From Phormidesmidales cyanobacterium (GTDB lineage Bacteria; Cyanobacteriota; Cyanobacteriia; Phormidesmidales; Phormidesmidaceae): a DNA stretch of 58,619 bases. Below the pieces are notes generated by a model. It made no database searches. It was not told the origin of the DNA and worked only from the letters and a program-made list of their open reading frames with translations. The DNA lies in NCBI GenBank assembly GCA_038315915.1, contig JBBQAC010000001.1, positions 1-58,619 of the forward strand, given 5' to 3'. Of this stretch, positions 21,989-27,309 are shown in pieces (position 1 is the stretch's first letter; each line of letters starts with the position of its first letter). Made by a program: the position numbers and the translations under genes.

Positions 21989-22092
21989 ATCTCTCACTGT
22001 CCGGGGCGGGATTCCGCCATTCTGTGTTGGTTCGAGGATTTGCTACGCTTAAAGTAATTATGTATACGTCTGAGAAAGAGAGGAACGACTAA

Positions 22093-22320
22093 TTGTCTAA
22101 GCAAGATTTGATTGAAATGGAAGGGACGATCACTGAATCGCTTCCAAACGCTATGTTTAGAGTGGATCTCGATAACGGGTTCAACGTGCTTGCCCATATT
22201 TCGGGTAAGATTCGACGGAACTATATCAAGATTTTACCGGGCGATCGCGTCAAGGTAGAGCTGACTCCCTATGACCTGACTAAAGGCCGTATTACCTATC
22301 GCTTAAAGAAGCCGCGCTAG
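22093..22320 (+). CDS. infA: Translation initiation factor IF-1
   Basis: LPNAMFRV...AHISGKIR...GRITYR; TTG start. Confidence 0.97.
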
Positions 22321-22409
22321 ATTGTCTGCGTAGGCGAAAATATTATTTATGCCCCTGACCTTGATGCTGACTTACCGGCGCTAGGGCACAAGTTGCACCG
22401 AATGCATAT

Positions 22410-22638
22410 TTATCGATCGTAAAGTTCGTCTCGATGGGTAGGTACTAGATCGGTGATAGCTAAAGGGTGGTCTAGCGTTTGCTGAATGAAGTCTGCGCTA
22501 TCGTCAGCAGGTGTAGCCTTGCTGTGACTCACCAAGATGACCTTTATGCTTGCTTGTTTTTCCAAAAGCACTCTTATACTCGTCGGGAATGGCGATTTTG
22601 CCATCTTCTACTTTTGCTTCAAATTCTGCTGTAAACAC
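22410..22638 (-). pseudogene. Frameshifted small antitoxin-like gene
   Basis: MFTAEFEAKVEDGKIAIPDEYKSAFGK (GTG 22638) continues after a 1-nt shift in the short A-run near 22557-22561 as QASIKVILV...DFIQQTLDHPL...RDELYDR*. Confidence 0.45.
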
Positions 22639-22727
22639 GCTTGAGCCTCAATGCTTTCTGGGTGAGCGATCGCAACGTCTTTCTTCTAAGCGGTTAGTAC
22701 ATTTTACGATAGTTTCTTCAGGCTGTA

Positions 22728-23369
22728 TTAGGCCGCTTTAGCAGTTTCGGCATACTGCCAGTAAGCAATGCTGCCTTTGTCATCGGGAATGACCAGGCCG
22801 AACCATTCTAGGCGCTGGAGGTTTTCGGTAATGGCGTCCAGTTTATTTTTGGTGATGCGGCCTTTGAATTGGGCGGCGATTTGTTTGGCGCTCCATTCGC
22901 CGGGGGTGGTGCGCAGGAGGTCGCGGATGGCGGCGAGCTGTTCTTTAGGTTTGGTGGGCCATTTTTGCTGCTCTACGGGTTCGATGATGGGTGCTTCGGT
23001 GGGGGTGATGCCTGCGAGGGTAGGTTGGTCAATGGCTTCGGTGGGGGTCTGCCCTGGATTTTGATAGTCGGGGCGGAGCCAGCGAATGAGGCCGTTGCGT
23101 TCTTCTTCGGCGCGTTCGGCGTTGAGGGCAACGAGGTTTTCGAGGATTTGTTCGTCGGTGATGGTGTGGGGCCAGCCGTAGGCGTCGAGGACTGCGGCAT
23201 CTAGGTCGTCGTGGATTTGTTTGAGGGTGGAGACGAGGGCTTTGTTGTTGTAGTCGCGGTCGGCGTCGGTGAAGGGTTCGCCTGCGCGGAGTTTTTCGAG
23301 CAGGTTGTACATGCCGGTGATGGTGATGTCGGGGTGGGCGGCTTGGACTTGTTTGCGGTGAGTGTCGAG
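22728..23369 (-). pseudogene. C-terminal remnant of MmeI-like (Type IIG/IIL) restriction-modification enzyme
   Basis: LDTHRKQVQAAHPDITITGMYNLLEKLR...IHDDLDAAVLDAYGWP...LVALNAERAEEE..GLIRWLRPDYQNP resembles the C-terminus of these fused MTase/REases; no methyltransferase motifs, begins abruptly at a composition boundary. Confidence 0.8.
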
Positions 23370-23425
23370 ATACCTAAACAACTTACAGCTTCTTCGTTCG
23401 ATGGTTCAATAAATATGGAAGTCTC

Positions 23426-24034
23426 TCAACAAGTTGAATAGAGAACAAAGATGAAAGGTGGTATAACGATGACGAATAGAGAGTATAGCCAATAGTTCAC
23501 AAAAAAGGATCTTGCTTTTATCCAGAAACATCTCAGTGGACTTAATCGAAAATCCTTCCTATGTTGTATTTGAAATTCCAAATAGTCTTCAGGCTCGTGA
23601 TTCTCTGGGCATTCTTCGATTATCTCAGAGTACCGACGCTGTATATTATCCACCCCATCGCCTAAACTCTCAGGAGTGCGATTTATTGCTATTAAAACTT
23701 CTAACTCTGAATACAGAGATGAGATTTTAATGGCGTTCGTGTGCATTTTCTCTGACTTTCCTGCATAGTTATTGGCACCTTCTAATAGACTCAATACTAG
23801 GATAAATACGGACAGGGTAAGCGATATTACCGTATATAGATTGTTTGTCTTTGGGCAAGATGTAGTATCAAGAACAGCCTGAATGACGGGTATGGATATC
23901 CCGTAAACAGATAGCACGGATATACTGAATATAGATACTTGTTGCCTTCTCTTTAGCCTTCTGTATGCGTTAAATCTCGAACCTTTCGTTTTCCAAAGCC
24001 TGAATTTGAGAGAATTAACATAGTCGTCTAACAT
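23426..24034 (-). CDS. SLATT-domain (SLATT_5-like) transmembrane effector
   Basis: N-terminal LWKTKGSRFNAYRRL, two hydrophobic helices (SIFSISVLSVYGISIPVI; VISLTLSVFILVLSLL), ENHEPEDY, third C-terminal TM helix. Confidence 0.8.
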   Translation of the reverse strand: MLDDYVNSLKFRLWKTKGSRFNAYRRLKRRQQVSIFSISVLSVYGISIPVIQAVLDTTSCPKTNNLYTVISLTLSVFILVLSLLEGANNYAGKSEKMHTNAIKISSLYSELEVLIAINRTPESLGDGVDNIQRRYSEIIEECPENHEPEDYLEFQIQHRKDFRLSPLRCFWIKARSFFVNYWLYSLFVIVIPPFIFVLYSTC

Positions 24035-24059
24035 ACTAAAATTAAAACCATCCAGAATA

Positions 24060-24226
24060 GCAGGTCATCTGTAGAGTCATTAGCAATCGCTTCGAAGGCT
24101 AGTCCGAAGCTCCAATCACTTGGCAGTGGTTGGCCTCACTTAAGAGTTTAGTTACAGCCGCTTCTTAGAAGTTTTATCTCCAAGAAGGTCTTATTCAGCA
24201 TTAGCATGACAAAGAGATGACCTGCC
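24060..24226 (-). ncRNA. Putative RT-associated structured ncRNA
   Basis: Perfect 11-bp terminal inverted repeat (24060-24070 / 24215-24225) enclosing three hairpins (24089-24110, 24112-24133, 24161-24187); fills most of the 227-nt RT-SLATT gap. Confidence 0.7.
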
Positions 24227-24232
24227 GCACTT

Positions 24233-24241
24233 ATGGTAGCA
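24233..24241 (-). promoter_or_regulatory. Extended -10 promoter for the ncRNA/SLATT transcript
   Basis: TG-C-TACCAT on minus strand; predicted +1 at about 24226/24225, the first base of the terminal stem. Confidence 0.5.
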
Positions 24242-24261
24242 TATACTTTTTGGTTTATAGT

Positions 24262-25692
24262 TTACGCCAGAGGATATATATTCCTCTCATCATTCTCTAG
24301 CTCTGATATCTCTCTATACTGGCAGTTAGTAAATAATGCTTCTATTTGTTTGGGAGTGTACTCTTTCTTCTTCTCTATCTCTCCTTTGCTTATTAGATAG
24401 TCTCGTTTTTGCTGTACTGTTTTATACCTCTTATAGTCATGAATATAACCGCTGTCAGGGCTATGTTTCGACTCATAAAAAGCCCTCGATAGTTTCTTTA
24501 AATTGCCCGGAGAGCCATCAGGAAAGTCTTTTAATCTTTTGAAAAATCTATCGATGCATCTATCTATCCTGTGCAATACAGACAAATCGTTTATCTCACT
24601 ATAGTAAAAGATCCAACCATATCTTCTATCTTCACTGACTGCACCCGTTATTTTTAGATTAAGTTCTCTTACCAAAATTGACTGTCTTTCTTCCTTTGTG
24701 AGTAGCTTATCCTTGTCTATCGTATACCGCCTTCTCTTTGAGTAGGCAGTAAACTTAGAGGCTATACCCTCTATATACCTTTCAATACTGGACTCGCTTA
24801 CTGAAACTAATCCGTTTGGTTTAAAGTAATAGCCAAGATACTTAAACCCGTCACTACTATCTCCAGAGAATGTTTTTTCTTTATCATGAAGCGTAAGATT
24901 AAAGCGCCTGCTTTCTATTTCTTCCTTCATCTTCTCCTGAATGGTTTCACGTTCCAGGACATCGCAGACAATTAAAATATCATCAATGTATCTGAAATAG
25001 TGCCCTCCTTGCCTTTTCATTACTTCATCAAAATCAGATAGATATATGGAAGCGAGTATGTTGGATATAGCTAAACCCTGAGGTATTCCTTTCGCGTTCG
25101 ACTCATACTTCTTTAGGTCGGCTTTCCTGTAGCCCTTTGGCATGATAGGGGACTCGACTGCTTTCCTTATCAGAGCTAATATTTTTTTTGATTTTATTCT
25201 CCTACCTATTCTCTCGAAAAGTATGTGTCGGTCGATAGAATCATAAAAGCTCTTAATATCACCGTATATAATTGATATTTCAGTCCCTTCTTTAGAAGCC
25301 ATGCAACTGTTGACTTCTTGTATATAGTTCCTAGAAGTTTTCCTTCTGACATACTCTGGAAATATCTCAAATAATGTCTCTTTCAATTGGCATAGAACTA
25401 TCCTGTCACGCACTGTAGGTATGCTTATGACGCGAGGTTCTTTACCTCTACCTTTTAGCTTTAGGAATTCTAAATAGGGAGAAAATTTATATGTTCCCCT
25501 CAGACACTTCTTGCTAATTACTTTGATATTTTCATTTAAGTTTTTCTCGAAACCACTTGGATCAGCCCTGTCCACACCTTTTGTATTTTTCTGCCTTACT
25601 TTTCTGCAAAATCCCTCTTGCAAGCTTTGCTGGGAAAAATTCTTTCTAAAAATTTGAGAAGGAAAGCTTTTCAGGCTAGTAGGTCTTTGCAT
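24262..25692 (-). CDS. Defence-associated reverse transcriptase (UG/DRT type, DRT10/UG17-like)
   Basis: RVISIPTVRDR, GDIKSFYDSI, GIPQGLAISNILASIYL, catalytic YIDD, FKYLGY, C-terminal LNLKITG...YGWIFYYSEIND; no intron maturase/endonuclease domain. ATG 25692 (ORF extends to TTG 25716). RT call is firm, subfamily is tentative. Confidence 0.9.
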   Translation of the reverse strand: MQRPTSLKSFPSQIFRKNFSQQSLQEGFCRKVRQKNTKGVDRADPSGFEKNLNENIKVISKKCLRGTYKFSPYLEFLKLKGRGKEPRVISIPTVRDRIVLCQLKETLFEIFPEYVRRKTSRNYIQEVNSCMASKEGTEISIIYGDIKSFYDSIDRHILFERIGRRIKSKKILALIRKAVESPIMPKGYRKADLKKYESNAKGIPQGLAISNILASIYLSDFDEVMKRQGGHYFRYIDDILIVCDVLERETIQEKMKEEIESRRFNLTLHDKEKTFSGDSSDGFKYLGYYFKPNGLVSVSESSIERYIEGIASKFTAYSKRRRYTIDKDKLLTKEERQSILVRELNLKITGAVSEDRRYGWIFYYSEINDLSVLHRIDRCIDRFFKRLKDFPDGSPGNLKKLSRAFYESKHSPDSGYIHDYKRYKTVQQKRDYLISKGEIEKKKEYTPKQIEALFTNCQYREISELENDERNIYPLA

Positions 25693-25792
25693 TTTGTCTG
25701 TAGCTGATGTGTGCAACCGATGTTACCGATATTTTTGAGATTCATCAATTCATTTTTCTGTAATGCTTGCGCAATCAACCTAAATATACCTA

Positions 25793-26029
25793 TCAAGAGA
25801 TCAGCGAACTGCGTCGAAGGTAGGGTGCCATTTTCTCGCCGCTGTAGAACTTAATATCCTTATCAAAGCAGTAAGCGCCCACGACACTTCCCTTTGGCGG
25901 TGGCCCTTCTACACCGACCACCCCACACAAGTCGATAAAAAAGCCCTGATAGTTCGCCCGCTCGTTGCTCTCGGAGCCCAGCCGCTTACCCAAAAACTGT
26001 TCGACCCGCTGCTGATCTGCCCTATCCAT
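25793..26029 (-). pseudogene. N-terminal remnant of MmeI-like restriction-modification enzyme
   Basis: VEQFLGKRLGSESNERANYQGFFIDLCGVVGVEGPP...YCFDKDIKF resembles the MmeI-type N-terminus (ERANYQ.F...LC..LGV), then stops. Confidence 0.7.
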
Positions 26030-26178
26030 CCATGCCCTCGTGCGATCGCCTAGCCATCGGGTTACTCCCGTTAGCCCTCACTATTCCCATAGTAGCCACG
26101 TCTGTCAGTGACCCCGCCCCAAAAGTTTCTTTGGGAATCGCTACAGACTACTTACATAGCAGCTCACACTGGTCAGGG

Positions 26179-26409
26179 AAGCGATCGCACTTCTCCTGCA
26201 CCAGCGTGGGCTTTTTTGTGAAGCGATCGCACTTCTCCCAGCGCAACGCCCACTTCTCTCAAAATAGCCAACACTGTTTGCGCAGTAGCGCCCATTTCTC
26301 GCAAAGCTGCTCCCACTGCCTACAAAGCAACTCCCCATTCTCGCGGAGTAACAAATACTTCTCGCTTAACCGTAAATGTACGCCTAGCAACAGCGAACAG
26401 TTTTCATCA
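26179..26409. repeat. Degenerate 21-nt tandem repeat (about 11 units)
   Basis: AAGCGATCGCACTTCTCC at 26179 and 26221; CACTTCTC/CATTTCTC/CACTG recur at 21-nt spacing. Confidence 0.55.
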
Positions 26410-26852
26410 TCGGCAAAAATCTTGTAATTATGCTGAGACTGCCCTGTATTTTTTATTCGTCGCTACGGGCATAGATTATCTGCCGAATATCCTCGGGGTG
26501 CTCTAGCAAAATGTGGCGGAGCGATCGCCTCCCCCCACTCCCAACAGGCACCAGTTCAGGCAATGCTATTCTCCCTGTGTACGCAGTGTTAGAGGCGAGC
26601 GATCGGTGTTGATTGCCCCCAACGCCGGTAGCGGCTAAATTTTTCAAGGCGGTTATGCCATCGCGCAGAATCCCACAGTGGTTGCGACACCACAGTGGTT
26701 GCGGGTGTGCGATCGCATAAGCAATAGCGTATCAGCCCCTTTCCAAAGGCGTCAACTATCTAGCGCGAAGTCTCGATAAGGGCAAATGGAGCAGTTCAAT
26801 GATTATCTGCACAGTCGGTTAAAATTAGTACATCGGTTTTATTAGGCTATTT

Positions 26853-27083
26853 ATGGAACAGATTGCTAAGCTTCATATTCAAAAGCTACCTGAAGGCTTC
26901 TACTTGGCAACCTCAGACGATGTACCTGGATTAGTTGCACAGGGGCGTACTGTAGCCGAAACCATAGAGATTGCTCGCGACGTTACTAAAAAGCTGCTAG
27001 AAGCGCAAGCCGAACGGCAGAGTTCAATCAAGCTAGTCGATATTGAAGAAGCGTTTGAATATCCCTTGGTTATAGGCATCTAG
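26853..27083 (+). CDS. hicB: HicB-like antitoxin (DUF1902-type)
   Basis: YLATSDDVPGLVAQGRTVAETIEIARDV. Confidence 0.8.
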   Translation: MEQIAKLHIQKLPEGFYLATSDDVPGLVAQGRTVAETIEIARDVTKKLLEAQAERQSSIKLVDIEEAFEYPLVIGI

Positions 27084-27084
27084 T

Positions 27085-27309
27085 ATGGGTCGTTTGGCAG
27101 GGTTTAAATATAGAAAAATCGTCAAACGTCTCAAGCAGCTAGGATTTCAATTTGACCGTCAAGCTGCCGGTAGCCACGAGATCTGGCATAATCCCGCCAC
27201 CAAGCGATTTACAACAATACCAAATCATCCTGGTGATATGCCTGAAGGGACGCTCAGAGCAATCCTCAAACAGGCTTCTATCTCACCAGAAGAATTCTTA
27301 GATACTTGA
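27085..27309 (+). CDS. hicA: HicA family mRNA interferase toxin
   Basis: GFQFDRQAAGSHEIW...TTIPNHPGDMPEGTLRAILKQA. Confidence 0.9.
   Translation: MGRLAGFKYRKIVKRLKQLGFQFDRQAAGSHEIWHNPATKRFTTIPNHPGDMPEGTLRAILKQASISPEEFLDT

Follow-up and report, generated by a model that had tools for sequence, protein, structure and literature searches.

What is the structured element that lies between a reverse transcriptase (RT) gene and a SLATT gene on the minus strand of the 58,619-nt stretch of DNA analyzed here (hereafter the window)? An earlier note on this DNA described it as an unannotated RNA of ~167 nt. The element measures 166 nt from stem to stem, or 167 nt if transcription starts at G24226, and it is not unrecognized: it belongs to the 'Eco2-like' RT-SLATT subtype of the DRT10/UG17 ncRNAs, and several of its homologues match published ncRNAs. 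We regard its membership in the DRT10 anti-phage module (UG17, RT-ncRNA-SLATT subtype) as close to certain. The best explanation as a whole, to which we give a probability of about 0.88, is a DRT10 ncRNA that likely holds two copies of the neighbouring RT as a dimer and also serves them as template. The main features are as follows.

24262..25716, minus strand: UG17/DRT10 reverse transcriptase (PADLOC RT_UG17, E 6.8e-138; residues mapped to those of H120)
24233..24241, minus strand: extended -10 (TG-N-TACCAT) of the ncRNA, from sequence and positional conservation in homologues; predicted +1 at 24226/24225
24060..24225, minus strand: DRT10 ncRNA, 166 nt, six-stem pseudo-symmetric fold (fold z -4.92; covariance-model match)
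23426..24034, minus strand: SLATT_5 membrane effector, 202 aa (PF18160, E 8.6e-56; PADLOC RTasSLATT, E 3.4e-46)

The combination of a UG17 RT, a SLATT protein and an ncRNA defines DRT10 (Tang et al., 10.1101/2025.10.16.682844; PMC12632851). In the UG17-B subtype, to which the Escherichia coli H120 system is assigned, the RT precedes SLATT with a gap of ~200 bp and promoters lie before both genes (Sanchez-Nieto et al., 10.64898/2026.04.29.721553). The structure of the H120 RT-RNA complex has been solved (Chen et al., 10.64898/2026.10.08.757509), and the loop geometry of DRT10 RNAs was defined by Ramirez et al. (10.64898/2026.06.29.735271).

The RT, 484 aa from the TTG at 25716 (476 aa in the protein-database call), matches the PADLOC RT_UG17 model (PDLC03754) with 458 bits over positions 4-429 of 429, and the next-best PADLOC models reach 153 and 136 bits, which places UG17 300 bits above the best other model. 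The adjacent SLATT_5 gene also scores above the NF033631 cut-off, and its product has hydrophobic segments near residues 33, 66 and 183. The gap between the two genes is 227 nt, in the UG17-B order RT-ncRNA-SLATT, and the RNA that fills it is structured, closed by a basal stem and directly upstream of SLATT. In a 90-sequence FastTree phylogeny rooted on locus L104, the RT groups with H120-type RTs (support 0.97), as expected of UG17-B, and it is 39% identical over 461 aa to the H120-type RT of locus L091. Its residues D153, YIDD 243-246, R394 and Y481 map to D140, YVDD, R380 and Y467 of H120; the YxDD motif is thus intact, and from this alignment Y481 near the C-terminus is predicted to be the priming residue. 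The locus is therefore a divergent new member of the described DRT10 family and not a new kind of element. DRT10 RNAs, the RT-ncRNA-SLATT order and the structure of a homologue are already in print. In our literature search, preprint supplements (which may list the clade) aside, no report of DRT10 in cyanobacteria was found, and cyanobacteria are unmentioned in the UG17-B main text of Sanchez-Nieto et al. Two short motifs of the ncRNA had no match in the accessible supplement of Tang et al. 2025. With this locus, the RT-SLATT subtype gains a likely cyanobacterial host, an advance of incremental value.

The fold of the RNA resolves into six stems and two single-stranded loops.

24215..24225, minus strand: SL1 5' arm, perfect 11-bp inverted repeat; 8 of 10 SL1 pairs show two-sided changes in homologues
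24190..24214, minus strand: SL2, whose pairs form in 27, 27, 27 and 25 of 32 homologue rows
24161..24187, minus strand: SL3, the anchor stem before Loop A, with the AC-CUUC...GAAG-N-G-G family motif (sequence and homologues)
24147..24160, minus strand: Loop A, 14 nt, the length of H120 loop 1 (H120 geometry from Chen et al.)
24135..24146, minus strand: SL4, a short and weak hairpin of 3 bp, present in computed folds and in the same register in locus L007
24112..24133, minus strand: SL5, in which substitutions in the homologue L009 keep or improve pairing
24089..24110, minus strand: SL6, the template boundary stem (sequence and homologues)
24078..24085, minus strand: predicted A-B-A' template UG-CUAA-UG, predicted cDNA (TTAGCA)n, from homologue register
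24071..24088, minus strand: Loop B, the template loop, of the same length as in H120; its equivalents in homologues are the 'predicted template loop' of Tang et al. Table S2
24060..24070, minus strand: SL1 3' arm, perfect 11-bp inverted repeat

In 23300-25900, no perfect non-palindromic inverted repeat as long as the 11-bp stem between 24060-24070 and 24215-24225 occurs elsewhere with a spacing of up to 250 nt. The 3' arm of this stem ends 25 nt before the SLATT ATG at 24034, as the earlier note had estimated. The three minus-strand hairpins reported earlier are present at 24161-24187, 24112-24133 and 24089-24110, the first with two G-U pairs, the last with one and the middle one with a single C-A mismatch, all as described; that set overlooked SL2 (24214-24190) and SL4 (24146-24135). 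On the minus strand, the segment 24055-24230 folds at -60.9 kcal/mol (z -4.92), and none of 200 shuffled sequences was equally stable; the plus strand gives z -2.74. No meaningful Rfam match was found in 22000-27000. Parsing and covariation show a pair of anchor stems with a single-stranded loop after each of them, as in other DRT10 RNAs.

The same plan recurs in homologous loci. In 74 of 104 loci, this one included, the RT is followed by a gap of 129-243 nt and then SLATT; six loci have SLATT first, and 24 lack a SLATT match, some of them being truncated or unrelated. The gaps share, in this order, SL1, SL2, an AC linker, SL3 and Loop A, then a hairpin or two, and finally an anchor stem, Loop B and the SL1 3' arm. 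Locus L059 matches the published Eco2-like UG17_locus_1101, and L063 and L091 match E. coli H120, which the supplement of Tang et al. 2025 lists as Eco2-like. Covariation was assessed in a structure-blind MAFFT alignment of 28 homologues that excluded this RNA and L009. In that alignment, 85.9% of cells pair, compared with 70.2% after shuffling, a control that is inflated by related sequences, and 44-49% after sliding; 27 of 32 pairs change on both sides. The parser forces the pairing of SL1, SL3 and SL6 by construction and leaves SL2 and its rival stem unforced. The parse set comprised 32 rows (L046, L071 and L084 were left out of 35); among the 66 intergenic regions, 13 were unparsed and 18 more were not accepted, most of these being shorter RNAs of the Ser-primed grade. 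In the 32 rows, 106 of 128 SL2 cells pair (permuted mean 81, maximum 95), with A-U/C-G swaps. RNAalifold recovered just 4 pairs from a ragged MAFFT alignment of 35 rows and was hence not used as support.

A covariance model built from the 28-homologue alignment and run with filters off over 10 kb recovers exactly 24225-24060 on the minus strand (20.8 bits, E 7e-5; next-best match 6.1 bits). Homologues keep the stems through compensatory changes. Under default filters, the model gives a single partial and non-significant match with the right 5' end (8.4 bits, E 0.73), and among 65 loci it misses L006 and L009. Since the filtered matches are weak and these two loci are missed, the RNA at 24060-24225 is considered a divergent member. 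L009 differs from it at 17 of 166 positions, seven of them in SL5, where pairing is kept or improved (U-A for C-G, G-U for A-U and U-A for the C-A mismatch), one in Loop B and none in SL6. A contig search with a single protein returned only 5 distant RTs, viral contigs contained no exact SL6 match, and plasmids gave no blastn match.

Two loci (L031:2865-3011 and L053:2090-2233) have the order SLATT-RT-ncRNA, with the RNA downstream of the RT and the only SLATT match upstream; this order is absent from the UG17 subtype section of Sanchez-Nieto et al. In locus L008 (G314:C2), a UG17-like RT match covers residues 15-195 only, with an early stop and no SLATT match in the locus.

The earlier proposal of a discrete, RT-associated minus-strand RNA agrees with the published properties of DRT10 RNAs, but it overlooked the single-stranded template core of the A-B-A' type in Loop B. 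Loop B has the length of its H120 counterpart, and G24078 occupies the H120 first-copied position (SL1-8). Copying in H120 begins at G134, which a 7-nt linker separates from SL1 (Chen et al.; numbering checked against Table S3 of Tang et al., PMC12632851). UG is found at SL1-9/-8 in 22 of 32 rows. The Eco3 template is preceded by a non-canonical purine pair at the foot of the stem and then by a linker of 2 nt (Ramirez et al.). Applied to this RNA, the Eco3 rule places the template start at U24085, thereby reading UG-CUAA-UG at the expected stem distance, and a product unit of exactly 6 nt, (TTAGCA)n, is the reading that we moderately favour. The repeat unit is uncertain because A is only 2 nt long. 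Each of the 9 nearest-grade loci carries a repeat that begins there. Counted by lineage (6 of 6), P is 0.012, or 0.035 once six possible starts are taken into account; the test is modest and was chosen post hoc. The period is 6 nt in the nearest-grade loci L007 and L107. In proteobacterial homologues, A starts 1-3 nt later. L108, a locus added later, fits the register only with an 8-nt period, and this check is weak because roughly one in two shuffled loops passes it. The host assembly contains no tandem copies of the predicted 6-nt unit or of the 9-nt one considered next.

The most serious competitor keeps the DRT10 RNA and changes its template to CUA-AUGACU-CUA (24083-24072), with a 9-nt repeat (AGTCATTAG)n, or takes another period (7 nt). 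It offers a 3-nt A/A' homology, longer than UG/UG and kept in L009, and its A would begin at position 129, a start shared by many proteobacterial homologues. It is also the sole pattern that satisfies the repeat scan of Tang et al. 2025 (PMC12632851), which uses 3-5 nt for A/A' and would leave the 2-nt UG/UG uncalled. However, its A' ends 1 nt before SL1, a shorter linker than Eco3 tolerates; Eco3 has a 4-nt 3' linker, and removing 2 nt abolishes synthesis (Ramirez et al.). Moreover, the nearest-grade homologues start A at 127, and L007 and L107 have the 6-nt period. We therefore consider the longer or otherwise shifted template unlikely, at perhaps one chance in five, and retain UG-CUAA-UG as the predicted template.

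The RT itself bears on the register. In the H120 complex, His313 stacks on G125 (Chen et al.). Across 38 homologues, His occupies the equivalent position in 28 of the 30 rows that carry G125 and in 1 of the 8 that lack it, the 8 non-G rows representing about four lineages. In this locus, Lys327 is paired with an A at RNA position 24087 as the equivalents of His313 and G125. This covariation, by inference, supports the template register and RT binding. The locus thus offers a testable new repeat unit, the RT-RNA covariation of His313/G125 and a template-boundary register rule for this grade.

Loop A was also considered as a second processive template (AACU-A-AACU or UAA-C-UAA) and rejected, as both repeats are out of register. 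Since Loop A has no in-register A-B-A', only a short abortive product is predicted from it. A clade of four other loci (L010:2064-2218, L070:1183-1336, L011:1759-1926 and L013:2262-2427) has a Loop A of 19-20 nt instead of 14, with an A-B-A' at the Loop B register (GUAA-AU-GUAA, UGU-GAC-UGU and, in two of them, a 3-nt UUA repeat), and their Loop B has one too. These are possibly natural two-template DRT10 RNAs; in the accessible sections of Ramirez et al., a two-template RNA appears only as an engineered construct. Such RNAs, together with the SLATT-RT-ncRNA order, may merit more attention than the present locus.

The extended -10 proposed earlier (TG-C-TACCAT, 24241-24233) is in place, and homologues keep its position. 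A -10-like hexamer ends 5, 6 or 7 nt before SL1 in 8, 21 and 8 of 57 homologue rows, compared with 0-5 elsewhere, and one lies 4-9 nt before SL1 in 43 of the 57 (background mean 10, maximum 22, over 64 six-wide windows); 9 of 66 rows, in which SL1 was mis-called, were dropped. Many homologue -10 boxes carry the TG extension. A generic promoter scan did not list the ncRNA -10 site because the scan requires a -35 box. No terminator-like site was found on the minus strand in 23200-26100, and therefore read-through of the transcript into SLATT is plausible. The RNA is positioned to run into the SLATT mRNA, as are published DRT10 ncRNAs, in line with the suggestion that it might also be the SLATT leader. 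In compact loci (L010, L011, L013, L040, L070 and others), SL1 begins at the RT stop codon, and the extended -10 overlaps codons of the RT C-terminal priming tail (dual coding).

The cassette is embedded in a split gene.

25834..26029, minus strand: type IIG restriction-modification N-terminal remnant (PDLC03627 positions 3-61), upstream flank
22728..23369, minus strand: type IIG restriction-modification C-terminal remnant of the same gene (PDLC03627 positions 939-1130), downstream flank

The cassette (23370-25833) replaces ~2.6 kb in the middle of this type IIG gene, of which host contig C293 carries an intact paralogue (G000:C293 1333-4758). It has 37.8% GC and no HIP1 octamer, compared with 53.1% GC and 1.17 HIP1 sites per kb for the genome. 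This genomic HIP1 density, together with the named homologues, points to a cyanobacterial host. Other contigs diverge at both cassette junctions, and strain-variant contigs over the region show 334 differences (40 of the 334 listed). UG17 is found in 4 of 173 genomes of the order and in 2 of 401 genomes of the class sample. The intact paralogue has a HIP1 octamer exactly at the left junction, and L009 has the same downstream flank as this cassette. A HicB-like (DUF1902) and HicA toxin-antitoxin pair lies near the cassette at 26853-27309, and a large ribosomal protein operon, ending at infA (22093-22320), lies alongside.

This foreign composition and patchy distribution, together with the competing RNA fold described below, would suit a genuine DRT10 locus that is inactive in its host, through poor transcription after capture into a broken restriction-modification gene or through trapping of the RNA in a closed fold. 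However, neither reading frame is disrupted, the catalytic residues and the -10 box are preserved, and a relative 85% identical in protein carries the module in the same flank. There, 17 of 166 nt are changed; a single change falls in Loop B, and SL6 has none. An inactive locus is thus improbable.

The competing fold concerns the GUCAU/AUGAC complementarity, which the earlier note took as an inward continuation of the closing stem. The sequence match at 24076-24080/24206-24210 is real, and GUCAU, which is contained in SL2, can pair with Loop B instead. The free RNA has a minimum-energy fold of -58.5 kcal/mol in which part of Loop B pairs with SL2; the DRT10-type fold, at -57.0 kcal/mol, is 1.5 kcal/mol above it, and Loop B is fully open in ~4% of the ensemble. 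The family fold would thus have to be selected by the RT. If GUCAU/AUGAC did extend the closing stem, the RNA would be mainly a structured SLATT leader or a non-templating ligand of the RT. The helix belongs to the computed minimum-energy fold with pair probabilities of 0.69-0.83 and is kept in L009. In homologues, however, its five positions pair in 9, 7, 21, 21 and 4 of 32 rows, i.e., 62 of 160 cells against a permuted mean of 57, and 206 of 2000 permutations are as high. SL2, its competitor, is conserved in its place, and in DRT10 structures Loop B is open in the active site (Ramirez et al.; Chen et al.). The inner stem, which would bury the template loop, was therefore rejected as a conserved structure, and a leader or non-templating ligand is very improbable compared with a templating DRT10 RNA.

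A retron msr-msd or a DRT9/DRT2/DRT3-type RNA is hardly credible: the terminal inverted repeat resembles retron a1/a2, and retron-type and Drt3a models also pick up the RT, but UG17 leads with 458 bits against 153 and 136, and the RT does not reach the NCBIfam thresholds of Drt2, Drt3a or retron St85 (36 bits against a cut-off of 235 for the latter). DRT9 and DRT10 RNA folds are similar (Tang et al., 10.1101/2025.10.16.682844), but UG28, the DRT9 RT, is absent among the best 25 models and Loop B has no U tract.

With the DRT10 reading, a mechanism can be proposed from the E. coli homologues. The ncRNA would be made from its own extended -10 promoter with +1 near 24225, and the transcript would probably continue into SLATT, with a 166-nt species protected by SL1. 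A single RNA would take up two RT molecules, at its SL3 and SL6 anchors, and Tyr481 would prime DNA synthesis. The RT at Loop B would copy from G24078 back to U24085, slip via the UG/UG microhomology and repeat, yielding protein-linked ssDNA (TTAGCA)n, while the RT at Loop A would make only a few nucleotides. A phage-induced change in the level of repeat DNA may then activate the SLATT membrane effector and cause abortive infection; activation of SLATT by the repeat-DNA level is still a proposal in the literature (Tang et al., 10.1101/2025.10.16.682844). By this analogy, we infer a discrete RNA, a 2:1 RT-RNA complex, Tyr-primed repeat synthesis and SLATT-dependent defence.

SL2 contains a segment, AUGCUAAUGCU (24207-24197), whose 11 nt are all complementary to the predicted (TTAGCA)n, a match length reached by none of 5000 shuffles. 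The segment is itself a repeat of 6-nt period and adjoins the GUCAU that can pair with the template. The pattern was found post hoc. SL2 might conceivably be a product sensor, in which the cDNA opens SL2 and flips the RNA to the closed fold that buries Loop B, but we consider this a long shot; as a variant reading, SL2 may be a fossil of the RT's own product. L009 keeps the complement only with one G-T wobble, the middle base alone being changed, and a product complement occurs in only 3 of 25 homologues, where it is located in Loop A. Such a negative-feedback switch is not described for DRT10 in the accessible sections of the Tang, Sanchez-Nieto, Chen or Ramirez papers. If true, it would address how constitutive DRT10 DNA synthesis stays below the level that triggers SLATT.

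Among known systems, the locus is closest to H120 and the 'Eco2-like' RNAs (Chen et al., 10.64898/2026.10.08.757509; PMC12632851), with which it shares the succession of RT, ncRNA and SLATT, a Tyr, here the predicted primer, that lies three to four residues before the C-terminus, SL1, SL2, the AC linker, SL3 and the CUUC/GAAG anchors of the last stem, a Loop A of 14 nt and a Loop B of 19 nt when counted from the anchors, and UG at SL1-9/-8. Unlike H120, this RNA has six stems instead of five, another template (predicted TTAGCA), A in place of G125, Lys in place of His313 and a G-C pair closing the last stem, and its locus is embedded in a type IIG restriction-modification remnant of a likely cyanobacterial host. 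It resembles UG17-B in the RT-SLATT order, the ~200-bp gap, the promoter before ncRNA/SLATT and the ncRNA upstream of SLATT, whereas that subtype was described mainly from Pseudomonadota and Bacteroidota (Sanchez-Nieto et al.). Like Eco1DRT10 and Eco3DRT10 (Tang et al. 2025; Ramirez et al.), it has a pseudo-symmetric RNA of the SL1-SL6 type in which Loops A and B are present and the last stem rests on a non-canonical purine pair, followed by a 2-nt linker and A-B-A'. It differs from Eco3, which is primed by a serine, has five stems, makes a repeat of 9 nt and carries its ncRNA upstream of an overlapping SLATT-RT pair, and from Eco1, whose repeat is 8 nt. Telomerase RNA offers an analogy (Tang et al. 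2025) in its internal template, alignment segment, boundary stem and repeat-addition cycle; DRT10 is not a member of that class, being protein-primed, antiviral and not directed to chromosome ends.
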